Positions 8,346 through 64,000 of a DNA stretch of 64,000 bases are shown piece by piece. The notes under the pieces are model-generated. The model saw only the letters and a program-made list of their open reading frames with translations, made no database searches and was not told where the DNA came from. The position numbers were made by a program, and so were the translations under genes. Source of the DNA: a virus. The stretch lies in IMG/VR virus record IMGVR_UViG_3300018915_000002, one strand, 5' to 3'. Each line of letters begins with the position of its first letter. Within the stretch, counting starts at the first letter, position 1.

Positions 8346-8421
8346 GGTTTTGCTTTATTAGAAAATCCCCAACGACATGCGATCGCTGGGGATAAGGACA
8401 AGTTAAGTTGTGAATCGTGGC

Positions 8422-9187: not shown

Positions 9188-9215
9188 GATTTTGCTTTTT
9201 TAGCTTGTCTTCCTC

Positions 9216-9224
9216 ATTGTAACA
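9216..9224 (-). promoter_or_regulatory. Extended -10 promoter TGTTACAAT (representative of more than 20 copies of TGTTAYAAT)
   Basis: Other copies at 10506, 12039, 13211, 22408, 26894, 28532, 30859, 33656, 34704 (minus strand) and 43929, 48881, 53725 (plus strand). Most lie 27-45 nt upstream of a start codon. Matches the sigma70 TGn-TAtAAT consensus. Confidence 0.75.
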
Positions 9225-9314
9225 TTTTGTATTACTTTAGACCACGGAACTCCGTGACAGCAAAATCGCCCACCCTCTAAGAGGATGAGCGATCGCATAT
9301 TCTACTTGAAATGA

Positions 9315-9779
9315 TTAGTAGCGAGGTTTGTTAGGTGTACCAGAAATCTCCCTGACTGAGCGAAAAGGAGTTCCAGAAACGGCTCCCCCTCCACTATGGG
9401 TTCTTTGTTCTATTTCTAGGTGACAAGGCATCCATCCAGTTGATTTCCCGACGTAAAAACGACGGGTTTCTCCGTAGCAGTCTATGACCTCAACTAATTT
9501 ACCTTCAAGTCCAATGAGTTGAGGGGTTAATTCCGCAGGACAACGAGTCTTGGTCTTTTCAGAATACTCCTGACCTAACTTCATTAACCTTTGAAGTTCG
9601 TCATATCCGGCGAGTTGCCCCCAAATACTAGGATCAGGAATTGGTTCCCCAATCCATTGAGCAACAGCTTCTGCTTGTTTTCGAGCATTCTCAAAGCCTA
9701 GGCAAGAGAAACCTTCTCCGTGCCAAAACAAATAAAGCTTTTGCTCAGTATTGATTTTTGGTTGATTACATTTGGTCAT
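9315..9779 (-). CDS. Conserved phage-type hypothetical protein
   Basis: LTPQLIGLEG...GETRRFYVGKSTGWMPCHLEI segment resembles a family I recall from phage genomes; function unknown. Confidence 0.7.
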   Translation of the reverse strand: MTKCNQPKINTEQKLYLFWHGEGFSCLGFENARKQAEAVAQWIGEPIPDPSIWGQLAGYDELQRLMKLGQEYSEKTKTRCPAELTPQLIGLEGKLVEVIDCYGETRRFYVGKSTGWMPCHLEIEQRTHSGGGAVSGTPFRSVREISGTPNKPRY

Positions 9780-13204: not shown

Positions 13205-13453
13205 CTCTCAATTGTAACATATTATACATTAAGTATAATTTTGCAACCGTTTGTGTTGACGATCGGCGCGACAAACAACGCAAGGAACTCCTACTGCACT
13301 AAAAGTGCCATCCTTCTCAACCTGTATATGCCGTCGAACAGGATGGGCAGGGATACTGGCTTTTTCGTCAAATCTGCAATTGATTGCGTACTACAGATAA
13401 GCGGAGTGGCTTATTCAAAGTCCTATCCCTATATGTTATCACAAATGCACTCA

Positions 13454-13954
13454 CTAGAGCAAGTATTGGGCAGGCATCTCAGTAAAGTAAGGGAACGGTT
13501 CTCCATTGAGCGTGACGTTATCCCTGAACGTCTTCAAGCCCTGATCGTAGGCGGCTCCAGTGTATGCCCAGTAACCGAATGACAGGACGTTTATTGCCTG
13601 ACTAATATCGTCATCCGTCCCAAATCCAATATTGATTGTTATGTCATTTCTGTATATATTCTGGGGTTCCAGTTCAACCGCCAATGTCGAGATACCTATC
13701 TTGGCGGCTCGATTCCACTCTAGAATCTCCTGTCGAGCATGATACTGGAAGTACTTGGCTGTGCGGTCTGTTAGGGCGACGAAGAGCTTTGGAGCAAGAC
13801 CCATTGTTGGGTGAATTGGCGATCGCCCGTAATCGAGCAACAGCAGGTGCAATATTCGGCTTGCAACTACTGCGGCTGGGCGGCGAACAATATTCATCTG
13901 CCCTTGGGCGTTGTGGGGGCAAAACCATGTCCAATCGTTGCCAAGTGAACTCAC
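13454..13954 (-). CDS. Baseplate wedge protein, GPW/gp25-like
   Basis: SRILHLLLLDYGRSPIHPTMG resembles the gp25 signature (xSIxxILxTxxGERxxxPxFG); size is appropriate. Confidence 0.6.
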   Translation of the reverse strand: MSSLGNDWTWFCPHNAQGQMNIVRRPAAVVASRILHLLLLDYGRSPIHPTMGLAPKLFVALTDRTAKYFQYHARQEILEWNRAAKIGISTLAVELEPQNIYRNDITINIGFGTDDDISQAINVLSFGYWAYTGAAYDQGLKTFRDNVTLNGEPFPYFTEMPAQYLL

Positions 13955-14391
13955 TGATCCGCCTCCTGTGCGATCGCCTGGGTTACCAGTAGATCTCGCA
14001 CTCTAATCGCCATCTCCATCACTCGTCCTATGTTGCACCCAACCTTGATGTCAACGACCTCTTCTCCGGAGTAGGCGGTATCGTCCAGCAGATCGATAAG
14101 CTGATTCTGCTTTTCGAGGGCTTCTATAAACAACTGACTAGCTGCCGGAATTGGGAGGAACGGTGGTGGTGACGGGAAGATTAAAGGAGTCCAGTAGCGA
14201 TAGGTCTCCAAGGGTTCGTTCAATGTCAGCTCTGCTATATCCCATCTAGATTCGGCGATATCACCTTCTGGGGAGCGCTGCGTCAAGAGCGTTCGCACGA
14301 AAACAGCCTGACCAATATCGACACAGACAAAATACCAGCCACCACCGGATGGAGGTTCTTGATCTGTTCTTTTCCAATTGATAAAAGCCAT
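13951..14391 (-). CDS. Hypothetical protein
   Basis: 146 aa, translationally coupled to both neighbours. Confidence 0.65.
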   Translation of the reverse strand: MAFINWKRTDQEPPSGGGWYFVCVDIGQAVFVRTLLTQRSPEGDIAESRWDIAELTLNEPLETYRYWTPLIFPSPPPFLPIPAASQLFIEALEKQNQLIDLLDDTAYSGEEVVDIKVGCNIGRVMEMAIRVRDLLVTQAIAQEADQ

Positions 14392-14657
14392 TAAGGTTTC
14401 TTTTTCTTTCTAACTACTTTGAGTTTCGCTCCTTTGCCCTGGTTGCACGTTTTGCAGAGAGCTTGGAGGTTTTTGAGGATTGATTTTCCGCCTTTCGCTA
14501 CTGGGATGACGTGATCAATTTCTAAAATCACTTCACTCGCGGTACGACCGCAAGCCTCACAGCGGAAGTTTGCCCTTGCTAGCACGTCATAGCGAAGCCC
14601 TGGAGAGATAGGCTTGCGTTTGAGAGCAGGTCGCTTTTTCTTCGGTTTGGGTTGCAT
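14391..14657 (-). CDS. HNH endonuclease
   Basis: CEACG...LEIDHVIPVAKGG...NLQALCKTCNQGKG. Confidence 0.92.
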   Translation of the reverse strand: MQPKPKKKRPALKRKPISPGLRYDVLARANFRCEACGRTASEVILEIDHVIPVAKGGKSILKNLQALCKTCNQGKGAKLKVVRKKKKP

Positions 14658-14658
14658 C

Positions 14659-15024
14659 TCAATAGAAGTTTGCCTCTTGCACCCGTTTATATTTCTCTTC
14701 AGTGCTATGCCCGTCCCATGTCCCCTTGTAGGGAGGTAAGAAAGAAAACATCTCCAGCTCAGAGTCGTGAATATGCCATGAGGCTTGAACAGATAGGTCT
14801 GGACTCCCGTTTTTGCTTGGAAACTCTAAAAAGACAATGTTGCGCCAATCGTCCTCCCAAGTTGTGTCATTCTCGTCATGCTTCCCCAGTCCAGCCTTGT
14901 ACCCCAGAGATATAAGAACTTTTGCCAAAGGCACAAGCAACATATTCCGCTCTCGATAGACAGAGTCTTTTTGTTTGGCGAGTTCAGCAAGATTGTCCTG
15001 CAACTCTTCGACGGAAATCGTCAT
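14659..15024 (-). CDS. Conserved phage-type hypothetical protein
   Basis: YRERN...SWHIHDSE...WDGHSTEEKY pattern; function unknown. Confidence 0.7.
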   Translation of the reverse strand: MTISVEELQDNLAELAKQKDSVYRERNMLLVPLAKVLISLGYKAGLGKHDENDTTWEDDWRNIVFLEFPSKNGSPDLSVQASWHIHDSELEMFSFLPPYKGTWDGHSTEEKYKRVQEANFY

Positions 15025-15079
15025 TCTGTTAGTTCCATGCCATATTTGTTGTTGAGTTTATTTTACAAGGCATGAGCCG

Positions 15080-15652
15080 ATGATATTTTCCTTGGACGAT
15101 ATGCCGCCAGAAGATCTGGAAAAGCTCAAGGCAGCTTGTCTTGCGGCTGCTCGTCAGCCAACAATTGTCGTTGAACCCAAGATTAATTCGTTTGGCGCAT
15201 ACCAGTTGATCGAGGCTTTACGCGATCGCATTCAAACATCAAACGATCCAGCCCTAGCAGATCAGGCGTTCAGTCTCCTTGAGGAATTGGAGGCTAATTT
15301 TCGCGCCACGGAACTCCGTGAGGAGCAACTAGATTTAACCGATGAACAGGCGGTTCAGCGAACAAAAGATTCTCGGCGATTGGCGTACCTGGCTGCCGTC
15401 GAGATTTACGAGAAGCTGAGTCTTACTCGCCCTGGTGTTCGCTCCGATGAGAAGGCAATCTTCTTCACGCCTGCATATCTGAAGTGGGCGCTGACTCAGA
15501 TCTGCGTTTACGCTGGATATTGGGAAGAGGATAAGTTGCACCGCTGGCTTGGTTGGTGCCAAGCGATTAGCAACTGCTTGGGACTAACCACTATCAATGA
15601 GGAACGCGATCGCATCCGCACCCTCAAAGCAGAACTTAAAGAAAAATCATGA
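15080..15652 (+). CDS. Hypothetical protein
   Basis: 190 aa; carries a palindrome copy in its coding sequence (ATELR) at 15307. Confidence 0.7.
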   Translation: MIFSLDDMPPEDLEKLKAACLAAARQPTIVVEPKINSFGAYQLIEALRDRIQTSNDPALADQAFSLLEELEANFRATELREEQLDLTDEQAVQRTKDSRRLAYLAAVEIYEKLSLTRPGVRSDEKAIFFTPAYLKWALTQICVYAGYWEEDKLHRWLGWCQAISNCLGLTTINEERDRIRTLKAELKEKS

Positions 15653-25052: not shown

Positions 25053-25094
25053 ACACTACCCTCATTATAACAATTGTTATAATGAGGGTAGTGT
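25053..25094. repeat. Perfect 42-bp palindrome containing back-to-back TGTTATAAT promoters
   Basis: acactaccctcattataacaa|ttgttataatgagggtagtgt, no spacer, between divergent genes. Confidence 0.95.
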
Positions 25095-34760: not shown

Positions 34761-35894
34761 TTAGCCCTTTTTAGGCTTGGTTTTCAGCAAGTCGCTGTGA
34801 GCATTTTCCAATTCAACTTCCTCTTTCGAGAAAATCTTAACTGGAATCCCCAGCTTGAACTTCAAGTAAATAGCGAATCGCTTCACACTTTCGCTATCCG
34901 TTAATACCTTGTACCCCTTCTCACCTGGAGAAAGGATACGCCCGTGCCAGTCGGGATTGGATTTTCTCCAATCAATTTCCTTCAAGGGCTTGAAAAAGTC
35001 TAATAACTCTTCAGGAGACTTGGCTTCGAGAGACTTACCAACAGAAGCGATCGCATCCAAGAACACGGCTTGACCACACATATAGTCTTCCCGCACCTCT
35101 TTTGGTTCGATCTGCTTAATTGCCACTTCAGTCCACTGGGGAATGGTGACAATTAGGGCGTTCCAGAAGGCAAGGCAGAATGCCTTGTCCTCGTCATGAG
35201 ATTTTCCAGGACGGATTTGCTCGTGGACTTTGTAGATCCACTTGAGAGTTAGGAGTTTTGGGCTGGTTTTACTTACCGTCCCTCGCTCGAACTCCGTCCA
35301 GAGGTGAAGAAACTCAACCTCCTTCACGACTTGCATCGTGAAGTTGTTAGAGGGGCTGTCCTTGTAGACGATCTGGAGACTACTCTCCAGAGTCTTAGTG
35401 GTAGTGGTAATCGCCGCGAAGGCTTTCTGGCTCCGTCTTAGCCCAGTGTCGATTATTAACTGGACGGCGATCATCTCGTCACGGAGTTCCGTGAGTGCGA
35501 TCGCCTGAGCGATTTCCAGTAACTTTTCCGTTGCCAAGCGACGGTGTTGACCGTCGATAAGTATCAACTTCGCGTCGGCAGCGATGTGGAGCATTCCACA
35601 TCTGAAGAAATCCTGGTTCGGAACCTCAAACTCTACTTCGCCATCAATGCTGGCGATGAGAGGCGGGACGACATGATCTTTAAAATCCCCTACCACGTAG
35701 TCAACAATTTCTTGTACATGTTTTGGGCGCGGAGTTCGCTGTGATCTTTCTTCTACCGGAAGCTCAAGATAGTCGAGATTAAAGGTCTGGATGATTTCTG
35801 CGTACTTGAACCAGCAGATGTATGTCTCCATACCTGCTTGAATGCCACGAGCCGCAGGGAAACTGCGACGTGGATCGTCTCGGCGCAATGCCAT
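34761..35894 (-). CDS. dndB: DGQHR-domain protein, DndB family
   Basis: FPAARGIQAG, SQRTPRPKHVQEIVDY, LIDGQHR and the C-terminal IDWRKSNPDWHGR. Confidence 0.8.
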   Translation of the reverse strand: MALRRDDPRRSFPAARGIQAGMETYICWFKYAEIIQTFNLDYLELPVEERSQRTPRPKHVQEIVDYVVGDFKDHVVPPLIASIDGEVEFEVPNQDFFRCGMLHIAADAKLILIDGQHRRLATEKLLEIAQAIALTELRDEMIAVQLIIDTGLRRSQKAFAAITTTTKTLESSLQIVYKDSPSNNFTMQVVKEVEFLHLWTEFERGTVSKTSPKLLTLKWIYKVHEQIRPGKSHDEDKAFCLAFWNALIVTIPQWTEVAIKQIEPKEVREDYMCGQAVFLDAIASVGKSLEAKSPEELLDFFKPLKEIDWRKSNPDWHGRILSPGEKGYKVLTDSESVKRFAIYLKFKLGIPVKIFSKEEVELENAHSDLLKTKPKKG

Positions 35895-38179: not shown

Positions 38180-39454
38180 CTAACCAAGGAAAATATAGCC
38201 AGCTCGTTCCAGGTTAGACAGGACTTCGCTAATCAGAAAAATGGCATCAGGCTTCTTCACCTTCTCTCCACTCATTGGGTAATGAGGATGGATTGACTTC
38301 CAGTATTCAGCTAGTTCGCTAACCCTTAAGTCCCCCTCCCACAGGGGAATCAGTGCAACGGAAACAGAACTATCTAAAAGGAATGGCTCTGGACGGAGAG
38401 GAAGACACTCATTGATATCGAAGGGAGCAAAGCGGGTGATTGATTCAATCAGGAACTCCTTAACCGAATCACTCTTCAATAGTGGGTGTAATCTGACTGT
38501 CGGATCATTTGGTATTCTTCGAGACCGCACCCCTATCCCACACCAGAAATCTAGTAACCGATGGATAGGATGAAAAAGTTCAAATAAATGTAGCTGTTGT
38601 TCCTTAGGCAAATTTAGCGCCCAGGACAAAACATTCTTTGCTCCTGGCTCAAATAGATCGGGGAGATGCCACTGATTCCAGTTGACCATATCAATGAATT
38701 CAAGTCCTGCGGCTTTCAGTAAGGCAAATAGTTCAGTGATTGTGAACCCACGATCACCTTGGAAGAGAAAGTTCATCAAGACCGCGTGTCTGGAATGCTG
38801 CCCTTCGTAGGATGGGTTCCAGGTTTTCCTTAAGTCAACATTGGACTTGAGGTTTTTTATTACACTGATAGCCGTTTGAATCTCTTCCTCTTCTGGATTC
38901 CCGTCCATCAACCCCATCATTCCAAATATTTCCTGTGCGCGATAGTAGTGGAAGCGCTGGAAGAGGCTGTGTAGATTACCTCGGATGATGCCTTCTCGTT
39001 TGAGGAAGGTTTTCAAGACGGCTAATGCCTCAGCCGGATCTGGCATCAGGTACAGAATTTCATCGCAGTTAATATAGTCAAAACTCCCTTTCTCAATATT
39101 CGGGAGATCAAATAGAGATAGCTGTCGGAAGTCAGCTTCTAACTGGTGGTAAGCGAATCGTTGACGGGCGAGGTCAATTGAGCGATCGCTTAAATCGATG
39201 CCCGTTACCTTCGCTCCAGGATTGGCGAGAGCTAGGAGCAGGGTCTTGTATCCGCTCCCACAGCCTACATCTAATATCTTCCTGCCTTCTGGCTCTACGA
39301 TTTCCCTGTTGCGTCGGTAGAAGGCGGTGGACAGGGAATGGTAGTAGAGCGCAGCGCGATCTGTTGGAAGGTTCTCCACCTCCGTCACTGGATAAGGGAT
39401 ATAGTCGAATTGCTGTTGTATCTTTTCAAATAATTCCGAATCTTCGTTGCTCAT
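38180..39454 (-). CDS. Class I SAM-dependent methyltransferase, cyanobacterial chromosomal-type family
   Basis: ILDVGCGSG, VTGIDLS and FDYINCDEILY; the QQQFDYIPYP N-terminus is typical of this family. Confidence 0.88.
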   Translation of the reverse strand: MSNEDSELFEKIQQQFDYIPYPVTEVENLPTDRAALYYHSLSTAFYRRNREIVEPEGRKILDVGCGSGYKTLLLALANPGAKVTGIDLSDRSIDLARQRFAYHQLEADFRQLSLFDLPNIEKGSFDYINCDEILYLMPDPAEALAVLKTFLKREGIIRGNLHSLFQRFHYYRAQEIFGMMGLMDGNPEEEEIQTAISVIKNLKSNVDLRKTWNPSYEGQHSRHAVLMNFLFQGDRGFTITELFALLKAAGLEFIDMVNWNQWHLPDLFEPGAKNVLSWALNLPKEQQLHLFELFHPIHRLLDFWCGIGVRSRRIPNDPTVRLHPLLKSDSVKEFLIESITRFAPFDINECLPLRPEPFLLDSSVSVALIPLWEGDLRVSELAEYWKSIHPHYPMSGEKVKKPDAIFLISEVLSNLERAGYIFLG

Positions 39455-48364: not shown

Positions 48365-50614
48365 GTGAATCATCCGTCATGGCTAGACTATCACACCTGG
48401 GAAACGCCACGCTGGAAGACAGCGGTGGGCAGCAGAAAGATGTCATTTCCGATGCGAAAAGCATTGGAAATGAAAACAATCACGCCTGAGACTACGGTCT
48501 TGGATTTCGGTTGTGGACGCAACAACGATGTTACGTCCCTCAAGGAGATGGGCATTGCGGCAGCAGGATTTGATCCCTACTGGTGCAACGATCCGTCTCA
48601 ATTGAAGGTCACCGATGTGGTGACTTGCATCTACGTCCTCAACACGATTGAACGCGACTGGGAAATCCCAGAAGTGGTTCGATACTGCTGGGATCTAACC
48701 CGCAAGACACTTGTCCTAGCAGTTCGTCCAGGTGATGACCACGAAGAGACTACTACCATTGGGACCTACCAGTACTACTGGAAGCCCAAAAGCTGGCAGC
48801 GATTCGTACTCGATGAACTCGGATATGATGCCGAGTTCCCTGAAGCAGGTATCGCGGTTATAAAGAAACCTGCAACAATTTGTTACAATAAGAGTGTAAA
48901 GAATTCAAGCCAAACAGATATGAACAGCAAAGAGTTCAAGAAGTTCTTGTCAGTTTCCCCTGATAAGGACGGAGAGTCCAATGGTTCGCCCGTCTCTTTG
49001 GAGTATGAGCACGGAATGCTCATGCTCACCTACAAGAAGGGCGGAATGCTCGTCAAAATCCCCTACGCCTTAAATGGGGCGGACGAGAAGTGGTCAATCA
49101 CTGTTGACCACACAGCCGTAATGGCTGCACTCGCATCTGTGAAGAGCAAGGCAGACGTAAGCTTGAGCATCGTTGACGGCGATTTAATCATCGCCAACAG
49201 CGAAGTCAATCTTCGTATCAGTCCTTGGGGCAAGGATATCGTGGATTTTGATCCCGACATCCTTGAACTCGATAGCCAAGTTATTGAGTTTCCAGGTACG
49301 TTTTGGGCAGAATTTGTCGCTGCCGCAAGGGTAGCTAAGACTAACAAAAAAGGGGTAAACCCAGAGATTGTCGGTAAAGCTGTCCATGTTAAGGCGATAA
49401 ATGGACTTGCCTCCGTCTCAGCTTGGTCTGAGTCGGTTGCAACCCATCGACCAATCCCCCTCCAAAGGGAAATCACTGAAGACCGAAGCTTCGTTCTCCC
49501 CTTGGAGGCAATTGAAATCGTGGCTGCGATGAAGTCGTCGCAGATTACGATGACCCTCGATTACAAGTTTCATCAATTACTGATTGAAACGGACATAGGG
49601 TATGTCCTCGTAGACCTACCCCAAGTCAAATACCCCGTCACAGATGGGATGGAAAAGGGCGACTTCGCTGAAGCCTCAGTGGAAGTCAAACGAAAGGATC
49701 TGCTAAACGCGGTGAAAACCGCTGTCGAGGCAGGAGCCAAGAATGTGACGCTGGTGTTCGATAACAACACCGTTGTCGTTGAAGCAGCCAAAGTCAAAAA
49801 GCAGGAAGTTATTCCTACTGAGATTGACGAAAAGAAAAAGTTTGCGGCTAGCATCAAAGTGGCAGCAGGAGCGCTGCTTGACGCATTAAAAACCCTAACT
49901 GCGGCAAAAATATTCCTGCACTTTCCAATGGCTGCTGCAAACAGCCTGATCATCGATACCGTCACTGGTATCATGTACGTCTTTGTGGTTACCGTCAAGG
50001 TAGCTGCTCATTTGATTGAAACCGCAGCAGATGCACTGAAAAAGCCAGAACCGAGGCGAGAAGTCGTCTCGACTGGAGAAAATAGCGATGGCACTACCTT
50101 TGTAGTAGAAGCCGTCGAAGCCTCCCCTCTTCAACCAGAACTTTCTGTTGAGCAAGTGGAGGAGAAACGAGCCAAGCTCGAAGAGCAATTTGGCAAAGAG
50201 AAAGTCGATCTCGCGGAAGCTGCTCTGGATGTCGCTCAATACCGAGAAAGGGTTCGCGAAATCCTCAAGGCAATTGATGTGGAACTAGAGCAACTGCGAT
50301 CGCTTCCTGCATCCAGCAATACCGCTAAGATCAAGAACTTGGATAAAGTCCAACAGAGCATCCAAGATGATGCCAAGAAACGAATTGCAGAGCTGACAAA
50401 ACTACATCAGAGTCTTTCTGGTGTGGTATCGGACGCGGAAAACGCCGAGTCAGCTATTGAGGCTGATGTGTACGAGACAGAATTCACCCTAGATGGCTTG
50501 GAGGAGGTTCTCCTTCGCCTCAAGTGGTGGGGCGGTCGTACCCTTCATCTCCTCTGGAAAGAAGAAGCTCAATGGATGCCTCAGATGAGGCTTGTTGAGC
50601 CACGGACACGCTAA
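48365..50614 (+). CDS. Fusion of a phosphorothioation-associated-type methyltransferase domain and a DnaN-like clamp with a coiled C-terminus
   Basis: N-terminus RWKTAV...VLDFGCGR...GFDPYW...VVTCIYVLNTIE...WDLTRKTLVLA matches the DNA phosphorothioation-associated putative methyltransferase family. Residues from 186 on show clamp-like segments (KYPV...VEVKRKDLLNAVKTA; LLDALKTL...IMYVFV). Confidence 0.65.
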   Translation: MNHPSWLDYHTWETPRWKTAVGSRKMSFPMRKALEMKTITPETTVLDFGCGRNNDVTSLKEMGIAAAGFDPYWCNDPSQLKVTDVVTCIYVLNTIERDWEIPEVVRYCWDLTRKTLVLAVRPGDDHEETTTIGTYQYYWKPKSWQRFVLDELGYDAEFPEAGIAVIKKPATICYNKSVKNSSQTDMNSKEFKKFLSVSPDKDGESNGSPVSLEYEHGMLMLTYKKGGMLVKIPYALNGADEKWSITVDHTAVMAALASVKSKADVSLSIVDGDLIIANSEVNLRISPWGKDIVDFDPDILELDSQVIEFPGTFWAEFVAAARVAKTNKKGVNPEIVGKAVHVKAINGLASVSAWSESVATHRPIPLQREITEDRSFVLPLEAIEIVAAMKSSQITMTLDYKFHQLLIETDIGYVLVDLPQVKYPVTDGMEKGDFAEASVEVKRKDLLNAVKTAVEAGAKNVTLVFDNNTVVVEAAKVKKQEVIPTEIDEKKKFAASIKVAAGALLDALKTLTAAKIFLHFPMAAANSLIIDTVTGIMYVFVVTVKVAAHLIETAADALKKPEPRREVVSTGENSDGTTFVVEAVEASPLQPELSVEQVEEKRAKLEEQFGKEKVDLAEAALDVAQYRERVREILKAIDVELEQLRSLPASSNTAKIKNLDKVQQSIQDDAKKRIAELTKLHQSLSGVVSDAENAESAIEADVYETEFTLDGLEEVLLRLKWWGGRTLHLLWKEEAQWMPQMRLVEPRTR

Positions 50615-51344: not shown

Positions 51345-52175
51345 TTATTCCATCCGCCAGCTAGCTAATATTTCCGTAACTTTGTCGCTTCTGGCAGAGA
51401 TTTTAGAGTTGATTGCTCTTGTCACCTCAACGTACTCAATATTTGCTCCAAGCTTGGTGTAAAGCTCAACAATCCGCTCTGTAGCGTGATTGGATACCAA
51501 GGTGGGGCAAGGGTATCTAGAGGCGGCTAGCGCCAATTCTTCTTGCTTTTCCCAGTTGAATAATTCCCCTGTGCCATACTGAGTAAACTTTGAGGTATCA
51601 GTTAGCTCGTCATAAGGCGGGTCACAATAGACATAATCGGTTTTCAGTACCTCTACTTGAGAGAAGTCACCACAGGTAAACTCCCATTGCTTGAACACAG
51701 GAAGGTAATCCGTGTAATCCAACATGTACTTAAACTTTTGTCCCTTTGGAGGCTTTCCAATGGGTACATTCAGGCCACCGCTCATATTGCTCCTGATGAG
51801 GCCATTGTAGCCGTGGCGATTTAGGTAAACCAGCAATTCCGCAACTTCTTGGGCGTACATGGATAACATCAATGGCACAGACAGGGTGTTGAACCGCTGC
51901 CTCGCTTCGTAATAAGCTTCTTTAGAGTGCTGGATTGGGTTTTGAATTACAAACCCTTCCTGTACTCGGTGGTACAGATTTATCAGTGCTGGGAAGCTGT
52001 CATTGAGAAAAGCCTTGTTCGGCATTAACCCCAGCACATCTCCTAGTCCGCCACAGAACGGAGCAACATACCTGCGATCACGGTGCAAGTCATAGTATCT
52101 CTTGAGGTAGGGTACTAGCTTTGTCTTCCCTCCTGGATATTTCAGAATGGGGAGCAATTGCGTTGTTGTTTGCAT
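51345..52175 (-). CDS. dam: DNA adenine methyltransferase, Dam/D12 class
   Basis: LKYPGGKT, APFCGG, NDSFPALINLY, YLNRHGYNGL..N..G.LNVPIG and VYCDPPY. Target specificity is not determinable from sequence alone. Confidence 0.9.
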   Translation of the reverse strand: MQTTTQLLPILKYPGGKTKLVPYLKRYYDLHRDRRYVAPFCGGLGDVLGLMPNKAFLNDSFPALINLYHRVQEGFVIQNPIQHSKEAYYEARQRFNTLSVPLMLSMYAQEVAELLVYLNRHGYNGLIRSNMSGGLNVPIGKPPKGQKFKYMLDYTDYLPVFKQWEFTCGDFSQVEVLKTDYVYCDPPYDELTDTSKFTQYGTGELFNWEKQEELALAASRYPCPTLVSNHATERIVELYTKLGANIEYVEVTRAINSKISARSDKVTEILASWRME

Positions 52176-52320
52176 GTTTATTTTTGTAAAACTCAAATTA
52201 ATTGTAACATAATACCCAAATTCAATCCGCCACGGAACTCCGTGGTACGCGAAAAGGCAGACTCATCAAATCGATGAATCTGCCTTTTAATCTGCTAGTT
52301 GGTAGCTAGCAGCATAGCGT

Positions 52321-53766: not shown

Positions 53767-54087
53767 ATGCAAGTATTTTTCCTGCAACGGCACGGCTTCC
53801 GTGCGATCGCCTGCGCTGACAAAGAGCGCTACTGCTTTGTTGAGTTTTATCCAAACTCGCCTCATTTCAGTTCAGACTTCGGTGAGACAATGCATTTAGA
53901 GCATTGGCTCAAAGGTTGGACTAAAGATGAGAACTGGGAGCTTCCCTGCTTCAGTAAATTTGAAGCTTGGAAGAAAGAGATAGAAGAACGCTTGGAGAAA
54001 AAGCCAGAACACTGGAATTTGATGTCTCAAACACTCTTCATTGCTGGATTATCTGCAAATGAAGTCGTGGGGACGTTGAGTGATTAA
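53767..54087 (+). CDS. Hypothetical protein
   Basis: 106 aa; promoter at 53725-53733 plus leader. Confidence 0.65.
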   Translation: MQVFFLQRHGFRAIACADKERYCFVEFYPNSPHFSSDFGETMHLEHWLKGWTKDENWELPCFSKFEAWKKEIEERLEKKPEHWNLMSQTLFIAGLSANEVVGTLSD

Positions 54088-55075
54088 CCACAGAAATTAC
54101 GACCAAGTGGTCGTGTCCTTCTGTGGGAAAGACTCCCTTAGCTCCTTGCTTCACTGCTTGGAACTAGGTTTTCCCACAGAAAAGATCGAGCTATGGCACC
54201 ACCTAGTGGACGGCAATGGCTCAACATTTATCGACTGGCCTTGCTCTGGTGGCTACGCCAAAGCCGTAGGCAGGGCATTCGGCATCCCAACCTACTTCTC
54301 GTACCGAGACGGTGGTTTCAAAGCCGAACTACTGCGAGAGAACCGCAAGAGTGCGGCTACCTTTTTCGAGACCCCAGAAGGACTGAAGAAAGCAGGAGGT
54401 GATCGCGGTAAAATACTGACTCGTAGACAGTTCCCTCACGTAGGGGCGATACGAGATGGGCGCTACTGTAGCGCTCTAGAAAAAATTGACGTTGGGCGCA
54501 CAGCGTTCAACAATCAAGATCGATTCAAGGGTGCAAGAACCCTATTTATTAGTGGCGAGAGGGCTGCCGAGTCCAAGCAAAGGGCTTCCTACCATGAGTT
54601 TGAGACTCATGAGTGTGATGCCCGTGAAAAGTGTGGTCGCTACATTGACCACTGGAGGCCCGTCCACAAACTGACGACAGAAGAGGTGTGGTGCATCATT
54701 GGTCGCCACAAAATCAACCCTCATCCCTGCTACAGAGCGGGTTGGGGAAGATGCTCGTGTGCACTCTGCATTTTTTCGGATTGCGATCAGCTTGCCTCGG
54801 CGAGACTGGTCATGCCAGAGCAGTTCGCAGAGATGGTCGCTCTTGAGCGAGAGTTCCAGAAGAGCATCCATTTTAAAGTGAGACATCGAAAGGGTCAAGA
54901 GTCGGAGATCATTAATATCTGGCTGGAAGACCGTGCCAACAAGGGAATTCCTTATGGAGGGATTAACCTATTAACAATAGCGGAACTTCGGGACGAGAAC
55001 TGGGATTATCCCATCTTCTTGAACCAATGGGAAATGCCACTAGGAGCCTTTGCGAGTCAAAGCGGTCCTAGTTAG
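54080..55075 (+). CDS. PAPS-reductase-family protein (phage/plasmid type)
   Basis: VVVSFCGKDS (PP-loop-like), RYCSALEKID, SGERAAESKQRA, RPVHKLTTEEVW and HPCYRAGWGRCSCALCIF. Confidence 0.85.
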   Translation: MINHRNYDQVVVSFCGKDSLSSLLHCLELGFPTEKIELWHHLVDGNGSTFIDWPCSGGYAKAVGRAFGIPTYFSYRDGGFKAELLRENRKSAATFFETPEGLKKAGGDRGKILTRRQFPHVGAIRDGRYCSALEKIDVGRTAFNNQDRFKGARTLFISGERAAESKQRASYHEFETHECDAREKCGRYIDHWRPVHKLTTEEVWCIIGRHKINPHPCYRAGWGRCSCALCIFSDCDQLASARLVMPEQFAEMVALEREFQKSIHFKVRHRKGQESEIINIWLEDRANKGIPYGGINLLTIAELRDENWDYPIFLNQWEMPLGAFASQSGPS

Positions 55076-55160: not shown

Positions 55161-56495
55161 GAGATTCGCTGGGAAGACTGCGTACCCTCGTGGTCGCAGA
55201 TGAAAGGCGAGTCAATTGCGGTCGGTCAATCCCGACGCAATTGACTTTCCTGCCACGGCTTACCTAAAATCAAAAAAGTAGATAAATTGGTGAGTGATGG
55301 CAAATAAAGGTTATCGATTTCGGCTGTATCCAACCCCTGAGCAAGAGAAATATCTGGCTCGGTGTTTTGGGTGCAGCCGCTTTGTGTATAACCATTTTTT
55401 GCGGTTAATCACCGATGCTTACGCCGAATCCAAGAAGCACCTAAAGTATACTGACACAGCTAAGTTGCTCACTCTCCTGAAGAAAGATGAGCAATATTCT
55501 TGGCTAACAGAAGTCAACAGTCAGTCCCTACAGCAGACGCTTAAAGATTTAGAGTCTGCATTTAACCGCTTTTTCAAAAAGATAGGAAGTTTCCCTGTAT
55601 TTAAGAAGAGGCGCAATCGTCAATCATTTCGCATTCCTCAGCATTGGAGCATTACTCCCGATGCAATGCTAAAACTTCCCAAGATGCTCCCTATTAAAAT
55701 GGTGCAGCATCGGGAAATGGAAGGAACACCAAGCAGCGTTACTATCAGCAAAACACCTACGGGCAAGTATTACGCTTCCATTTTGGTGGAATATGACCAG
55801 AGAGAAGCTCCGCTTAATGGTGGAAAGACTGGCGCTGACCTGGGGCTAAAAGACTTTTTGATTACCAGCGAGGGTAAAAAGTATCCAAATCCCAGATTCT
55901 ACAAACGTGCATTAAAGCGTTTAAAGCGGCTACAACGCTCTTTATCTCGTAAAGTCAAAGGCTCTAACAACCGTAATAAGCAACGGTTACTTGTTGCCAG
56001 AGCGCACGAGAAAGTAGCCAATCAACGGTTAGATATGCAACACAAACTCTCTCTACAGTTAACGTGCGAAAACCAAGTTGTTGCTGTGGAAGATTTGCAT
56101 ATCAAGGGGATGGTTAAAAACCATAAGCTAGCCCAAGCTATTAGCGATGCTAGCTGGGGGCAATTCTTGACAATGCTGGAGTACAAAGGGAACCTCTATG
56201 GTTGTGAAATTCGTAAGCTAGACAGGTTCTTCCCTAGTTCTAAGCGCTGCTCAAAGTGTGGATACATCCATGAGCATCTGACGCTAGATGTCAGAGAGTG
56301 GATTTGTCCAGAATGCGGCACCACTCATGACCGTGATGTCAACGCCGCAACTAACATCCTCATCTTTTCAGATCCACAAATACGGCAGGGATTGCCGGAA
56401 TCTACGCCCAAAGAGCCTGTTGAAAGACAGGGATACCAAGGGGGTTACTCCTTGGGCTTGGGAAGCTGCGTGGGCTTGTCCCCGCAGTAATTCAC
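55161..56495 (+). mobile_element. IS200/IS605-family (IS1341-like) tnpB-only element
   Basis: Left end follows TTTAT, with hairpins ctgcg...cgcag and gtcaattgcg...cgcaattgac. Right-end hairpin ctgcgtgggcttgtccccgcag is followed by TTCAC. No tnpA. Confidence 0.8.
55294..56490 (+). CDS. tnpB: RNA-guided endonuclease TnpB
   Basis: N-terminal HTH (YRFRLYPTPEQ...FGCSRFVYN), RuvC GADLGLK, VEDLHIKGM, zinc finger CSKCG...CPECG and DRDVNAATNI. Confidence 0.95.
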   Translation: MMANKGYRFRLYPTPEQEKYLARCFGCSRFVYNHFLRLITDAYAESKKHLKYTDTAKLLTLLKKDEQYSWLTEVNSQSLQQTLKDLESAFNRFFKKIGSFPVFKKRRNRQSFRIPQHWSITPDAMLKLPKMLPIKMVQHREMEGTPSSVTISKTPTGKYYASILVEYDQREAPLNGGKTGADLGLKDFLITSEGKKYPNPRFYKRALKRLKRLQRSLSRKVKGSNNRNKQRLLVARAHEKVANQRLDMQHKLSLQLTCENQVVAVEDLHIKGMVKNHKLAQAISDASWGQFLTMLEYKGNLYGCEIRKLDRFFPSSKRCSKCGYIHEHLTLDVREWICPECGTTHDRDVNAATNILIFSDPQIRQGLPESTPKEPVERQGYQGGYSLGLGSCVGLSPQ

Positions 56496-56557: not shown

Positions 56558-57682
56558 TTAATCAAATTCAACATCGCCCCACTCCTCCTCCTCCAGTTCA
56601 TCATCGGCTTTCACTATCCCGTCCACGAGCTTCTTCCCTTGGGTTATAGCGCCAACAATCCCCAACCCCACCAGTTGAGCCATCGTTTCTGCAACGACCT
56701 GCATTTTTATAATGTCCTTGAATTTTGGCTTCCCTTCTTCATATAAGGAGTGAACCAATTCCACACTGGGTGCAACCGACTGTGCTGTTTTGACTGCCGC
56801 TCGGTTCTTCAATGCTCGTAGTTGAACCCAAGCTGTTTCCAGAGTGATTCCTGTTGCCAAATTCACAGCAAAATCAATTCCCAGTCGCGCCCAGAAGTTC
56901 TCAACACCTGCTTCGTCAGCAATCTTGTTAGATATGAAGTAACTCAATTGCCCAATCGCCGCGAAGGTCAGTATGGTACTTAGTCGCTGGCGCAGAAGTA
57001 ACCCGATCGCAATCTCCGGAGTCAATACGGCAGCCAGATAAATCCCAATCGGAATAGCCGTCGCCGTGAGCTTCCCTAATTTCTTGATGAGTTCAGACTC
57101 ACTTTGAACATTGTTAAGATCGTCAATTAATTTGTTGTAGCGGTATCCAGTCAGTTCAAAAGCCCGTTGAAAATCTTTGATTAGTTCCTTTGGCTCACGC
57201 CCATCCTTAAGACCCTTCAGGTCATCAGCAATATCCTTGAACGGATCTGGCTTGATTGCGTTGGGCAAACCGGGGTTAATTTCCCCGTACATATCGGCAA
57301 GTTTATCCCTTGTCTTCTGAGCATCGATGCCGAACATTCTGTCAGTGAGCTTATCGGCAAACTCTGGGTCTTTGTTGGCTATCTTCTCCAGTCCCTTGGC
57401 TGTAAGTTTAAGAAGCTCTGAATTGACCTTGAGCTTTGCTGCCTCTGGGTCACGCATTGCCTCCCGTAGTATCTGCTTAACGGTGGAGGTCTTACTACTG
57501 ACTTCTTCTATGTTTTGGCTGATTGCACTCCTTGTCGCCGAGGCTTTCGACGCAAACTTTCCCCCCTCATCCCGCAGGACAGAATCCACATTCACAAGCC
57601 ATTGAGCCCCAAACTCCTTAACAAGCGCCTGAAGTAGAACTGAATTAAGTTGGGCTTGAAGGACGGTGTAGGGATTGAGCAT
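56558..57682 (-). CDS. Leader-family effector A: shared N-terminal leader, helical body, hydrophobic C-terminal region
   Basis: N-terminus MLNPY..LQAQ...W...VLRDEGGKFAS; hydrophobic helices at about aa 210-290 and 335-345. Confidence 0.6.
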   Translation of the reverse strand: MLNPYTVLQAQLNSVLLQALVKEFGAQWLVNVDSVLRDEGGKFASKASATRSAISQNIEEVSSKTSTVKQILREAMRDPEAAKLKVNSELLKLTAKGLEKIANKDPEFADKLTDRMFGIDAQKTRDKLADMYGEINPGLPNAIKPDPFKDIADDLKGLKDGREPKELIKDFQRAFELTGYRYNKLIDDLNNVQSESELIKKLGKLTATAIPIGIYLAAVLTPEIAIGLLLRQRLSTILTFAAIGQLSYFISNKIADEAGVENFWARLGIDFAVNLATGITLETAWVQLRALKNRAAVKTAQSVAPSVELVHSLYEEGKPKFKDIIKMQVVAETMAQLVGLGIVGAITQGKKLVDGIVKADDELEEEEWGDVEFD

Positions 57683-57685
57683 GGT

Positions 57686-57898
57686 TTAAACGTCAACAAC
57701 TTCGGCAAACACCTGCGATCGCAGTCTTTGGGGCAGGCTTTCAACAAACCCCTCTAGGGAACCTGTCTTATCTGTCTTCCTTAGGCTTGCGACCAACCGC
57801 TCAATACGCTTCCCTCCCTCAATCTTAAGCTCTCCTCCCTCCACGTAAACTGCTCCGATTTGCTCTTCCAGCTTATAAACAAGTGCTTTTCGCATCAC
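57686..57898 (-). CDS. Small protein, candidate immunity for the kinase effector
   Basis: 70 aa with ATGA overlap with the kinase stop codon. Confidence 0.5.
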   Translation of the reverse strand: MMRKALVYKLEEQIGAVYVEGGELKIEGGKRIERLVASLRKTDKTGSLEGFVESLPQRLRSQVFAEVVDV

Positions 57899-58773
57899 AT
57901 CATCTGACTTACGGCTTGCCCAATATCAGGGGAAGATGCCACCACTTTCAATGCATCGAGCCGACCTTTTACGGTTCTCGTGTAAAGTGCCACTAGATCG
58001 TCATCCTTAACTGTTTTGGTGATTGCCTCCAGAATCTTATCTTCCTTATCAATTACAGATTGAATATCTTCCCTGGATATCTTACTCCCTATGTTTCGGA
58101 AAGCGTCGGCAAGTTCCCCTTCAAATCCAGCAAGACTGGAAAAGGTCGCTTCATGATCAGCAAGCTTCAATCCCTGCTTGGTGATATAGAAGTTGCCTTC
58201 GTTGCGATCTCCATTGGCGATTACAAAGTCGAATAGTCCTAGTTTAGTTATTTCTTTCTCGTTCAATAATCCAGTTAATGGAGTATCAACTTCAAACAGG
58301 TTTTCTCCTTCGACAAAAGGACTTACCGAGTAATCTCGTCTCTTGATTTCCAAGTGTTTTGCAGGAATAACATAGTCATTGATACCCATCACCCTGGAAA
58401 TCTCAGTAGACAATTCCTCCTTGATTGCCGCATCCTCAAAAAAAGCGTTGTCACGCCTTTTTAAAAAGTACTTCTGATTGTCAATCTCTGTTGTGTAATA
58501 CCTGCTAGACCCCGCTGTTGTTTTAAGAGGGGTGAGGGTAGCTTCTTCAAACTGACCAACACTAGGGAATGCAAATCCCCTTGGAGTCCTAGCCTTGGCA
58601 CTTGGTCGAGGCGCAGTGATGCGCTTACTCGCTTCAGAGGCAAACTGCCCGGATTCATCCCTTAACACCACCCTTTGGGCTTTCTTATACCACGGGGCAG
58701 GGTAGCGAACAAGGGCAGCCTGCAATAAAGCAAGCTGGCACTGAGCTTGAATTAGGTCGTAAGGGTTCAACAT
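57895..58773 (-). CDS. Leader-family effector B: HipA/PI3-PI4-kinase-like kinase domain
   Basis: Start moved to MLNPY at 58773. Motifs YFLKR, KEELSTEISRVMG, catalytic FDFVIANGDRNEGNF and LKLADHEATF. Confidence 0.8.
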   Translation of the reverse strand: MLNPYDLIQAQCQLALLQAALVRYPAPWYKKAQRVVLRDESGQFASEASKRITAPRPSAKARTPRGFAFPSVGQFEEATLTPLKTTAGSSRYYTTEIDNQKYFLKRRDNAFFEDAAIKEELSTEISRVMGINDYVIPAKHLEIKRRDYSVSPFVEGENLFEVDTPLTGLLNEKEITKLGLFDFVIANGDRNEGNFYITKQGLKLADHEATFSSLAGFEGELADAFRNIGSKISREDIQSVIDKEDKILEAITKTVKDDDLVALYTRTVKGRLDALKVVASSPDIGQAVSQMM

Positions 58774-58789
58774 AAAACAATTATCCGCA

Positions 58790-58832
58790 AAAATAAAAAA
58801 CCCACCAACTTTTGCTGTTGGCGGGTTTTTCC
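58790..58832. terminator. Intrinsic terminator
   Basis: aaaaaacccaccaac-ttttgct-gttggcgggtttttt. Confidence 0.75.
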
Positions 58833-58844
58833 GTATGCACTCCA

Positions 58845-59108
58845 TCAATCCTTAAGAATCTGGAGTGCAGCGTTTTTATGTTCCTGAAACCGTTCATTTT
58901 TTAGACTCTCTATAAAGGGGACAGCTTGTTTTAGTTCCAGGGCTTGAGCAAGCCACAAGGTACTTCGCAGGTACTTACCTTCTTTCAAACAGTCTAAGAC
59001 TACCTGCACTCCGGCTTCTCCTTCCTTCTGGACGGCTGCAAGCAAGTCAGCCGCAGCCTCTCGGTCGTCGGTTTCGTCCATGAAACCGATGAATTCTTTT
59101 AATTCCAT
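58845..59108 (-). CDS. Small helical protein, candidate immunity for the EndoU effector
   Basis: 87 aa, HEAT-like helices, starting 4 nt after the EndoU stop. Confidence 0.5.
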   Translation of the reverse strand: MELKEFIGFMDETDDREAAADLLAAVQKEGEAGVQVVLDCLKEGKYLRSTLWLAQALELKQAVPFIESLKNERFQEHKNAALQILKD

Positions 59109-59112
59109 AATA

Positions 59113-59766
59113 TTAAAATACTGGGTAACTTGTTACAATTTTATCATTTTTTAAGCAAACACGCAACCTTACGCCCTCGTGAACACCTTCCACAAACTGG
59201 CGATCGCCATATCCCAGTACCTTATTATTCTGAACAACATCCTCAATTGCATCCATGATTTTGTCGTTGTTCCACCTTTCTGGAAACAAGGTTTTACGGT
59301 TCTCTGGAATACGACCATCCGGATAAGCTTTCATCGCCCCTGGAGGTAGTTCAATTTCCATCACTCCATTCTTCTGCTTGCGGAGGACATCATATTCATA
59401 GCCATAAATATTACAGAACGTGTCAGCCGCCTGCTTGGTGTGCATCCCGCCTCGTAGCTGGTTGTTTTCAATATCACCCTGAAATATATGTTTAATATTG
59501 ACTGGGTAGCCTGCGACACTTGTTTTCGTCGTTGGTCTCTTCACGGGTTTATTCGACGAGCTGGGGGAAGGGGTTTCGGCTAATTGTTGATTGGGTTTGA
59601 CGGGTTTCTGAAAAGCTTTATTGGCAGATTCTGAGACGGGAGAGGCAAACCTACCACCTTCTCGATAAACGGTTTGGGTCTCTTTCAGCCACTTGGCGGT
59701 ATAGGCAGTGGCAGCTAGTTGAAGAGTGTGAAGTTGGGCTAGGGCAACCTGGTAGGGGTCAAACAT
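59113..59766 (-). CDS. Leader-family effector C: bacterial EndoU ribonuclease toxin domain
   Basis: KHIFQGD...GGMH (two catalytic His), KTLFPERWNNDKIMDAI and C-terminal GVRLRVCLKNDKIVTSYP. Start moved to MFDPY. Confidence 0.85.
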   Translation of the reverse strand: MFDPYQVALAQLHTLQLAATAYTAKWLKETQTVYREGGRFASPVSESANKAFQKPVKPNQQLAETPSPSSSNKPVKRPTTKTSVAGYPVNIKHIFQGDIENNQLRGGMHTKQAADTFCNIYGYEYDVLRKQKNGVMEIELPPGAMKAYPDGRIPENRKTLFPERWNNDKIMDAIEDVVQNNKVLGYGDRQFVEGVHEGVRLRVCLKNDKIVTSYPVF

Positions 59767-59793
59767 ATTGGTCACGGAGTTCCGTGGTAGTGA

Positions 59794-60321
59794 TTAATGC
59801 AGTTCTCGCAAGATTTCTCGCCACATCATTTTATCCTTCTGGTCAAATAAGGTTTTGGCAAAATCATTGAGGAGAGTGTTGAGATCACGATCATCACCAC
59901 TCGCTTCGGCGATCGCTTTTTGGATTACTGCGATCGCTGCCATAGTCGGTATCGGATCTTCTGTTAACTGCTTACTTTCGGCTAAGGCACGAACTTGGAG
60001 ATCGTAATCGCCGGACTTGAGTGCCTCATAGAGCTTATCTGTCGTCTGTTCAAATACTCCCTTCCCTTCATCGAGCCGATTTCTCACCTGCTCCTTAGCT
60101 GAGGCTTGTCCAGGAGATCTGAGGATACGAGCCGCTTGCTCTTGGGTATCACTATCGAGTCCGTGATTCTTCTTGATAATGTCACGACGGGCAGTTGCCG
60201 TTTTGAGCTTTTGGGCGGTTGTAGGAGCAAATTGCCCTAGCTTATCGCGTTCATACGTGCGTTCTAGCTGGAGAAAGGTGGCAATGAGTTGAGACTTGAG
60301 GAGGGCAATTGCAGTTTGCAT
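59794..60321 (-). CDS. Leader-family protein D (short leader, helical body)
   Basis: SQL..FLQL..YERDKLGQFAP shares the RDxxGxFA motif. Confidence 0.55.
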   Translation of the reverse strand: MQTAIALLKSQLIATFLQLERTYERDKLGQFAPTTAQKLKTATARRDIIKKNHGLDSDTQEQAARILRSPGQASAKEQVRNRLDEGKGVFEQTTDKLYEALKSGDYDLQVRALAESKQLTEDPIPTMAAIAVIQKAIAEASGDDRDLNTLLNDFAKTLFDQKDKMMWREILRELH

Positions 60322-60365
60322 ATACCGTTATAATATTTATCAATGCATTTCAATGAAGTAAAACC

Positions 60366-63064: not shown

Positions 63065-63181
63065 CCGCCACGGAGTTCCGTGGTCAACAAAAACAAAAAA
63101 ACAATCCAAAAGGGGTAGACTAAGGTCAATCTTAAAAAAGGTCTTCAGCCGCTCACGTAACCCGTGGGCGGCTTTTTGCGT

Positions 63182-64000
63182 ATGGATGAGTTTTACGGGT
63201 TGCAGGCTCAATTTGAATTTGTCGTTGACCCCCAAACCAAGACAAGCATGGGTTGGGTGCGATCGCAGTTGGGTGGTATTGAGACTGACGTAGAGTCCTT
63301 GTCTAGAACACTGGGGCGCAACAATATCGCTTCCCAATTCACTACCGAAGCAAGTCAAGTCCAACGTGCCACTCGTCGCACGACCAAGGCTGTTGACCAG
63401 ATGAGCGACACCCTAAAGGTGGCGGCGAAATCTATTGACCCTTTGAAGCGAGAGTTTCGTGCCTTACGGGCGGAATCTCGAAATATTGAATTTGGAGAAC
63501 TCACTGACCCTGAGCAATTCCAAAGAGCATCTCGTGAAATCAAACAATATGTATCTGCACTCAAAGCCCTAGAGACTCAAATCACGGGCAATACAACGGC
63601 TGAGCGTGAATTTGGTGCGACCCTTAAACGCCAACAGAGTATTGCGGAGACTCGAATTGATCTTGCCCACGCCGAGCGCCGAGCTGCGATCGCCTCTCAG
63701 AACCTAGGTAGCGCTCAAGCGCTCCAGGGGGGAGGGCAATCTATTTTAAGGAATCTAACGGAACCAATTGAGGCTGCCAAAGAGCTACAGCAAGGGCTAG
63801 GGACAATCAAAAAACTGGCAGGAGATATTAGTGATCGTGGACTAGTTGAAATTAAAAACAATATCCTGAACTTGTCAGCAGCGATGGGTGTTGCTGATAC
63901 TCAGATTAGCTCTGTATTTGAAGATCTAGCTGGGGCTGGAAAGGACTTTTCGGATGCTATTGACCCCAAGACGGGAAAACGGGCAATTGAGAACCGAATA
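63182..64000 (+). CDS. Phage tail tape-measure protein, N-terminal part (runs off the window)
   Basis: Hand-translated open frame of 273 codons, absent from the ORF track: MDEFYGLQAQFEFVVD...helical Ala/Gln-rich...PIEAAKELQQGLGTIKKLAG..., resembling the start of a tape-measure core. Confidence 0.8.
   Translation, partial: MDEFYGLQAQFEFVVDPQTKTSMGWVRSQLGGIETDVESLSRTLGRNNIASQFTTEASQVQRATRRTTKAVDQMSDTLKVAAKSIDPLKREFRALRAESRNIEFGELTDPEQFQRASREIKQYVSALKALETQITGNTTAEREFGATLKRQQSIAETRIDLAHAERRAAIASQNLGSAQALQGGGQSILRNLTEPIEAAKELQQGLGTIKKLAGDISDRGLVEIKNNILNLSAAMGVADTQISSVFEDLAGAGKDFSDAIDPKTGKRAIENRI

Follow-up and report, generated by a model that had tools for sequence, protein, structure and literature searches.

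The 64,000-nucleotide stretch of the virus record IMGVR_UViG_3300018915_000002 analyzed here (hereafter, the window) carries a minus-strand array of four consecutive genes, g1 to g4, whose proteins share an N-terminal leader and have unrelated bodies behind it. These leader proteins belong to a previously undescribed family of phage-borne polymorphic effectors. On balance, and with modest confidence, we regard them as virion-borne effectors delivered on infection, for which the leader would serve as the loading signal. The cargo includes EndoU, ADP-ribosyltransferase (ART) and kinase-like bodies, all enzymes with cytoplasmic substrates. Such enzymes, encoded beside a tail operon, joined to a common N-terminal module and frequently paired with a putative inhibitor, are best explained as virion-borne proteins. 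The sequence-only reading of this DNA had recognized the architecture of polymorphic toxins, that is, a common N-terminus, unrelated C-terminal domains and a small gene downstream, and our analysis upholds that description. The array DNA comes from biocrust (soil-crust) metagenomes of two studies, and the contig of the array protein itself is 242,772 bp long.

The interval from 60321 to 56558 is packed with six minus-strand open reading frames (ORFs), the four leader genes and two small ORFs, all recovered at the positions and start codons first proposed for them. Read along the minus strand, g1 (59794-60321) encodes a helical protein of 175 aa with a shortened leader at residues 1-36 (60321-60214). 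The next gene, g2 (59113-59766; 217 aa), joins its leader (59766-59632) through a linker to a bacterial EndoU RNase domain at residues 91-216. An acidic 87-aa ORF (58845-59108; isoelectric point 4.8), the candidate EndoU inhibitor or immunity protein, begins 4 nt past the g2 stop codon. In g3 (57895-58773; 292 aa from the Met at 58773), the leader (58773-58627) and linker precede a protein-kinase-like domain, and the stop codon is overlapped by a basic 70-aa ORF (57686-57898), the constant partner of the g3 kinase. Beginning 3 nt past the end of that ORF, g4 (56558-57682; 374 aa) comprises a leader (57682-57539), a helical bundle at about residues 80-220 and hydrophobic helices at about 200-290 and 329-347. 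The linkers behind the leaders are rich in Pro, Ser and Lys. A small ORF thus follows both the RNase gene and the kinase gene, as had been noted from the letters alone, and BLASTP finds no direct match among the bodies of the four proteins, in agreement with the claim that they are unrelated.

Over roughly their first 48 residues, g4, g3 and g2 agree completely in 17 alignment columns, and identity to g4 is 45-50%. The g1 leader is shortened, with its middle missing, and reaches 23% identity over 60 residues in the four-way alignment; its family membership is backed by a relative, P0085, that has the full leader. When all six-frame ORFs of the window were scanned with a local hidden Markov model (HMM) built from family leaders, only the four array genes matched: g3 (E 3.5e-18), g4 (1.6e-17), g2 (3.4e-13) and g1 (4.2e-6). 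Therefore, the similarity is not due to chance and is confined to the array, and the proposal of a shared leader on four consecutive genes stands, clearly for three of them and in shortened form for g1. Among 28 diverse members, 6 leader positions are invariant and 5 nearly so. The leader ends in the motif R-D-x-S/T-G-K/R-F-A-S/K, which closes a helix plus beta-hairpin; AlphaFold2 (AF2), given a 41-sequence alignment, placed the helix of the g4 leader at residues 4-19 and the hairpin at 22-25/34-37 with moderate confidence. At the DNA level, the mean column identity among the leader paralogues of the array is only about 63%, which places their conservation at the protein level. Recent gene conversion, or a recombination site among the leaders, was considered and is ruled out by this low DNA identity. 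No Pfam or PHROG family covers the leader in any of the 80 leader proteins scanned, no NCBIfam model covers it in ten representatives, and PADLOC also returned nothing for it.

We searched 1.84 billion representative proteins with a 48-position profile of ten leaders (from the window and the related contigs L001 and L006), as the sequence-only reading had proposed in order to find other cargo domains. Among 104 matches at an E value of 1e-3 or better, 79 are clusters (at 50% identity) with the leader at the extreme N-terminus, the match ending at residues 39-69 and mostly by 57. All 79 contain the R-D-x-x-G-x-F-A-type motif, in proteins of 63 to 996 aa. The search yielded many other cargo domains: the bodies form 26 BLAST components (22 singletons), and those with a Pfam assignment include EndoU, ADP-ribosyltransferase exoenzyme (2 members), GNAT, thioesterase, class-3 lipase, TPR and DnaJ domains, together with apolipoprotein-like helical repeats. 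PHROG matches comprise the kinase-like phrog_3162 (4 members) and an internal virion protein with an endolysin domain (3 members), with further labels of minor head protein, virion structural protein and Alt-like ART. Most bodies belong to no recognized family.

A metagenome scan with a narrow leader alignment added 24 short loci, many with two or three tandem leader genes. Neither the leader patterns nor the g4-module patterns matched anything in IMG/VR or in a set of one genome per prokaryote species (185,579 prokaryotes). Likewise, no match was obtained in 50,697 phage records by blastn of the region or by tblastn of g4 and the tape-measure N-terminus. Two leader proteins of contig L010 (10001-11998 and 11998-13893) contain an internal partial second copy of the leader, at residues of about 340-366 and 267-294, respectively.

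The other 25 profile matches are not relatives. Twenty-three are giant proteins that match solely through a short repeat resembling the last 13-17 residues of the leader, and the remaining two are P0086, which lacks this repeat motif, and P0007, a low-complexity repeat protein matched elsewhere in the profile. The repeat, I-V-x-R-D-x-S-G-N-F-x-A-G-T-I-T, occurs in 5-21 copies spaced about 55-160 residues apart in proteins of up to 6,021 aa, with P0012, P0017, P0018, P0025 and P0075 among its carriers. It corresponded to no Pfam family in seven proteins scanned and to no solved structure in the PDB.

Of the 79 clusters, 38 align with g4 from residue 1 past residue 200, a span of about 290 residues that takes in the leader, the helical bundle and the hydrophobic helices, and the hydrophobic part alone is common to five more. 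Some members with this long module end in an enzyme: P0019 and P0033 in a g3-type kinase, and P0066 in an ART at residues 780-963. Judged from these alignments, g4 is not merely another cargo but the stand-alone form of the long N-terminal module of the family, and g2 and g3 are short forms that have the leader only. The initial view that only a leader of about 45 residues is conserved was therefore right about the leader, which is real, but not about its being the only shared part. The hydrophobic helices that had been seen in the g4 body were recovered. AF2 with the 41-sequence alignment gave g4 a predicted local distance difference test score (pLDDT) of 79-91 for residues 90-220, so that only the helical bundle of about 80-220 is confident; single-sequence AF2 reached a pLDDT of 40. 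No Pfam family matched g4 or g1 above threshold, and a g4 search of the ESM Atlas had no match at a meaningful score. An orthologue of g1 is present in L006.

The EndoU domain of g2 is the firmest of the cargo assignments made at the outset, matching PF14436 far above the gathering score (65.1 bits against a cut-off of 25.3; E 1.1e-17) over profile positions 5-128 of 129. His93, in a K-H-I-F motif, and His109, in a G-G-M-H motif, are both present, and we take these to be the catalytic residues of the EndoU family. An orthologue with 54% identity, P0032, was found, and the EndoU orthologue in L013 is also trailed by a small ORF (84 aa) that is 50% identical to the 87-aa ORF. We modeled the complex of the EndoU domain (g2 residues 80-217) with the 87-aa protein and obtained a score of 0.88, compared with 0.00 for the best of three controls; of 78 solved complexes, 51 attain the mark used for this score, as do 2 of 108 mismatched pairs. 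Three runs shared at least 94% of contacts, and the pLDDT of the partner was at least 92. Neither the EndoU chain nor the 87-aa ORF has a sequence relative in the PDB. Interface contacts in the model include EndoU residues 93 and 105-107, that is, His93 and the stretch beside His109, an arrangement consistent with an inhibitor masking the active site. The model thus supports binding of the 87-aa protein over the EndoU active site as an inhibitor, and this ORF would then represent a new EndoU inhibitor family. One TGTTACAAT copy lies at 59131-59139 on the plus strand, antisense within the 3' end of the EndoU gene and pointing across it; it could drive an antisense RNA or be present by chance.

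The g3 body had been described as a HipA/PI3K-like kinase. Conserved residues are in line with the kinase part of that description, but every family score is below threshold: HipA_2 at 13.2 bits against 27 (E 0.054) for g3, and PI3_PI4_kinase at 23.3 bits against 27.1 (E 7e-5) for a 399-aa paralogue in L001. The phrog_3162 match of g3 has an E value of 6e-9. A profile of 11 g3 relatives searched against the PDB found choline kinase and an archaeal kinase only, on the catalytic loop (E 0.1-0.6), and PADLOC gave just weak kinase-like PDC-M66A matches. Across these 11 relatives, Lys105, Asp206 and Glu208 never vary, and conservation is at least 90% at Asp189 and Asn194, so that the D-x-x-x-x-N of the catalytic loop, the metal-binding Asp and the ATP-binding Lys of the kinase signature are all present. 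We therefore describe g3 as kinase-like, of HipA, PI3-4K or choline-kinase type. The pairing of the kinase gene with an ORF of about 70 aa recurs in L001, L006 and L013. Homology between the small partners of the two kinase paralogues was looked for by BLASTP and not found, and partners that are unrelated are what would be expected of cognate pairs. By sequence, the g3 type may be a new kinase-like effector family with a small partner.

Comparison of related phages shows that the array content changes between constant flanks. Relatives keep a D12 methylase, a 300-aa membrane-type protein and a PAPS (3'-phosphoadenosine-5'-phosphosulfate)-reductase-like gene, and differ in what lies within the array. 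The window has g1, EndoU with its 87-aa partner, the kinase with its 70-aa partner, and g4. In L006 there are g1 and the kinase with a 69-aa partner only; L001 has the kinase with a 70-aa partner, a g4-like gene, a second kinase accompanied by its own small ORF and, on the opposite strand, a leader gene of 242 aa; and the order in L013 is kinase partner, EndoU with its 84-aa partner, g4-like gene, second kinase. EndoU and its small ORF are co-inherited, the L013 pair being 54% and 50% identical to that of the window. In these arrangements, pairs of predicted toxin and small ORF move as units between related phages. A strong terminator-like hairpin (58795-58831, minus strand; 15 pairs plus a T-run, a pattern match from a consensus scan only) sets the EndoU/87-aa cassette off from the kinase gene, which gives the cassette the look of a self-contained insert.

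Polymorphic toxin loci likewise have toxins paired with immunity genes and swap their cassettes, and these features would suit a toxin or bacteriocin set borne by a lysogen and exported by the host or released on lysis, in which the leader or g4 is an export or entry domain and the small ORFs give immunity to kin. Integrase genes near the L001 array point the same way, as do the language-model neighbors of g4 (PT-TG, LXG and DUF637), whose scores of 0.77-0.81 are below the meaningful level. However, the absence of the family from the one-genome-per-species set indicates that it is not common prophage cargo of sequenced bacteria, scans of the family libraries found no signal peptide or known secretion-system domain, and the linkage is to a tape-measure gene and not to secretion genes. 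We consider a bacteriocin set very improbable.

That linkage is one of the arguments for packaging. Leader genes adjoin a giant tape-measure gene, encoding 5,581-7,556 aa, in 7 of 9 informative contigs, which substantiates the earlier suggestion of a phage-borne array tied to a tape-measure gene. In four lineages, they run directly from the tape-measure stop codon on the same strand. Four leader genes lie directly past the stop in L007/L008 (7,312 aa), three follow the tape-measure gene in L010 (6,306 aa), and four do so in L011 (7,078 aa), the first with a start that overlaps the stop. L009 (7,556 aa) has six or seven leader genes around the end of the tape-measure gene and a portal gene about 3 kb beyond the last. 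The leader genes are instead divergent in L001, 349 bp from the start of a 6,944-aa tape-measure gene, and in L017, about 8 kb from the start of one of 5,581 aa. The window has this divergent arrangement as well: its tape-measure gene starts at 63164 on the plus strand and runs off the end (63164-64000; phrog_167, E 1.8e-8). The array had been placed about 3 kb upstream of this gene; at 2.8 kb the distance was correct, but the two are on opposite strands.

The giant genes themselves are located at L001:1-9652, L008:1-6291, L009:1-1928, L010:1-8758, L011:1-8878 and L017:1-2132. PF10145 is found on those of L001, L008, L010 and L011, and a C-terminal FAxGG...GEF tape-measure motif on those of L007, L009, L010 and L011, which together identify them as real tape-measure genes; the window tape-measure protein shares N-terminal homology with the giant tape-measure genes of L001 and L017. 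Tail length is usually about 1.5 Å per tape-measure residue, and genes of 5,581-7,556 codons would imply tails of about 0.8-1.1 micrometers.

The window contains 29 copies of the phage promoter motif TGTTAYAAT, compared with 0.8 expected, nearly all of them in the first 54 kb (for example at 9216-9224, 25064-25083 and 48881-48889). None of the 29 sites lies ahead of the array or of the operon on the plus strand that runs toward the tape-measure gene, and these two transcription units diverge from a 44-bp spacer (60322-60365). This pattern fits, indirectly, a different, presumably late, expression class shared by the array and the tape-measure operon.

Several observations weigh against virion-borne effectors. 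In one long contig, L016, no tape-measure gene lies within 10 kb of the leader gene. In a phage of another type, the leader protein P0072 (L012:10001-11905) is encoded in the head module, flanked by the capsid gene and a putative portal gene. Some PHROG matches carry head-protein labels, to which we give little weight as they may reflect only a shared ART domain. No leader-like element is present in the examined stretches of tape-measure protein. A fold search with g4 returned generic helical bundles only (best Z 6.9), and BFVD gave nothing significant. Packaging is itself deduced from gene position and cargo type only, and what usually lies just past a tape-measure gene is a set of structural genes for the tail tip. 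Tape-measure linkage favors a tail location, whereas P0072 and some of the PHROG labels point to the head. We infer virion incorporation, the loading site (with the tail or tape-measure protein favored over the capsid), delivery and toxicity.

Two of these loci have features of their own. P0072 is a Gly/Ala-rich protein of 634 aa composed of three units, each opening with Met and a short leader, and resembles either a fusion of tandem leader genes or a polyprotein. In this one protein, the units open with M-E-P-Y-S-L-A-L-L-E-G, which fits L-x-E. The L016 leader gene is flanked by peptidoglycan-hydrolase genes that lack the leader (GH19 and peptidase M15; 8184-9584 and 13381-15114).

The leader proteins might instead act without packaging, being made in the infected or lysogenic cell, with the leader as an intracellular docking, membrane, oligomerization or regulatory handle and the small ORFs as regulators. 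Phage kinases and ARTs that act after expression are familiar from T7 (gp0.7) and T4 (ModA and ModB). That virion incorporation is deduced, that the window array points away from the tail operon and has partial insulation in the terminator-like hairpin, and that L016 has no tape-measure gene nearby would all be compatible with such a role. Yet four lineages continue straight from the tape-measure stop codon into leader genes, the promoter abundant elsewhere in the window is missing at the array, and an RNase made late together with a closely coupled inhibitor would be of little use in a lysing cell unless exported in a particle. We judge purely intracellular action to be unlikely.

Alternatively, the position directly past the tape-measure gene, usual for Dit, Tal and fiber genes, could mean that these are external tail-tip or baseplate proteins, anchored by the leader in the way that tail fibers and tailspikes are by their conserved N-termini. 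The hairpin motif of the leader resembles the repeat of the giant fiber-like proteins, and lipase/esterase and TPR bodies would suit external enzymes. However, those fiber-like giants match over 13-17 profile residues only; EndoU with its inhibitor, ART and kinase-like bodies require cytoplasmic substrates; the g4 module has membrane-type hydrophobic helices; and the bodies are small globular enzymes behind a flexible linker, not fiber shafts. An external role is, in our estimation, less probable still than action in the producing cell, and virion-borne effectors delivered on infection remain the reading that we favor.

We compared the family with systems that share part of this design. Polymorphic toxin systems (Zhang et al. 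2012, PMC3482391) are described by a shared N-terminal region on unrelated C-termini, which is found here, by exchange of cassettes between relatives, as seen among the window, L001, L006 and L013, and by a putative cognate immunity gene directly downstream, a place that the 87-aa ORF would fill according to the complex model. Similarly, g2 has the EndoU toxin domain of CdiA-CT/Rhs toxins (PF14436) and, as modeled, a small putative binding protein, whereas the delivery part differs.

The MuF toxins (Jamet et al. 2017, PMC5576092), which temperate phages encode, combine a virion-associated N-terminus, a variable toxin C-terminus and an immunity gene, and their delivery with the DNA has been proposed. 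The leader proteins are likewise phage-encoded, with a conserved N-terminal part, a variable C-terminus and a small gene downstream. However, no Phage_Mu_F or SPP1 gp7 domain is present in the four window proteins or the 80 family members, the genes neighbor the tape-measure gene in 7 of 9 informative contigs instead of belonging to the packaging/head module near the portal (P0072 alone lies in a head module), they form tandem arrays, and their carrier is an uncultured soil-crust phage and not a Firmicute prophage.

Short N-terminal signals also load unrelated proteins, including an ART, into capsids, as with the T4 capsid targeting sequence (CTS) of IPI-III and Alt and the propeptides found in giant phages, SPN3US among them (PMC9026906, PMC5694885). 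The T4 signal spans about 10 residues, and the prohead protease cleaves it after L/I-x-E, whereas the leader described here has about 45 residues, a helix-hairpin structure and another motif, and its family is linked to a tail gene. In the extracellular contractile injection systems (eCIS), the N-terminal 20-50 residues suffice for toxin loading, as for PVC (Photorhabdus virulence cassette) Pdp1 and Pnf and Afp18's NtSP (a signal peptide at the N-terminus) (PMC10097599, bioRxiv 10.1101/2023.11.13.566157). Diverse cargo, a phage-tail-like setting and cargo genes at the end of a tail operon are common to both. However, eCIS leaders are disordered, polar stretches that lack conserved residues, in contrast to the strongly conserved, structured leader found here, and the relatives of the array have portal, capsid and terminase genes and tape-measure genes of siphovirus (non-contractile) type. 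No sheath gene or AAA+ loader was seen in the loci examined. Finally, polyvalent proteins (Iyer et al. 2017, PMC5512222) resemble the leader family as host-directed enzymes that travel with tail or DNA and as swappable modules by a short conserved element, but in the leader family each enzyme has a gene to itself, with a leader and often also a dedicated putative inhibitor gene, and is not a domain of one giant polypeptide. The leader family is a member of neither the MuF nor the eCIS systems and probably not of the T4 capsid-targeted proteins, though it would work like all three.

Other genes of the window bear on the biology of the phage. An IS605-type TnpB gene (55294-56490, plus strand; OrfB_IS605, E 3e-27; Cas12f1-like_TNB, E 6e-25) adjoins the end of the array, and TnpB genes are at the array edge in two related phages as well (L001:17263-18531 and L017:8616-9857); the syntenic site of L006 lacks one. 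DNA-modification-type genes include a DndB-like gene (34761-35894, minus strand) and the PAPS-reductase-like gene (phrog_424; 54080-55075, plus strand), and methylation genes include the D12 adenine methylase (51345-52196, minus strand) and an S-adenosylmethionine (SAM) methyltransferase (38180-39454, minus strand). Together, these suggest extensive DNA modification in this phage. The cyanobacterial host named in the sequence-only reading was an assumption, and any host assignment is indirect.

We propose that the array is a cassette locus of variable content in a siphophage that is uncultured and has a very long tail. The leader would build each protein into the virion, for release into the next host with, or just before, the DNA. 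A g4-type module would most likely insert into the host membrane, carrying or assisting enzymatic cargo; relatives have the enzyme attached at the C-terminus of such a module, and the RNase and kinase-like enzyme of the window would travel with the leader alone. In the producing cell, the small downstream ORFs would keep their cognate enzymes inactive, the 87-aa protein by covering the EndoU active site. In a more specific version, which we hold only tentatively, the leader would dock swappable enzymes and a membrane-inserting carrier beside the tape-measure protein within the tail tube, to be expelled before the DNA.

Phage-delivered proteins decide the first minutes of infection, and to our knowledge few general loading signals have been described (the T4 CTS and MuF fusions). 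The leader is sequence-defined and widespread, occurring on very different enzymes in at least 79 clusters and 24 metagenome loci. It raises the questions of how siphophages load and eject non-structural proteins, which chemistries of host takeover or anti-defense they deliver, and whether foreign proteins might be loaded by means of the leader. If the tail does act as the injector, phages would have their own equivalent of eCIS cargo loading, with a sequence-defined, engineerable signal.

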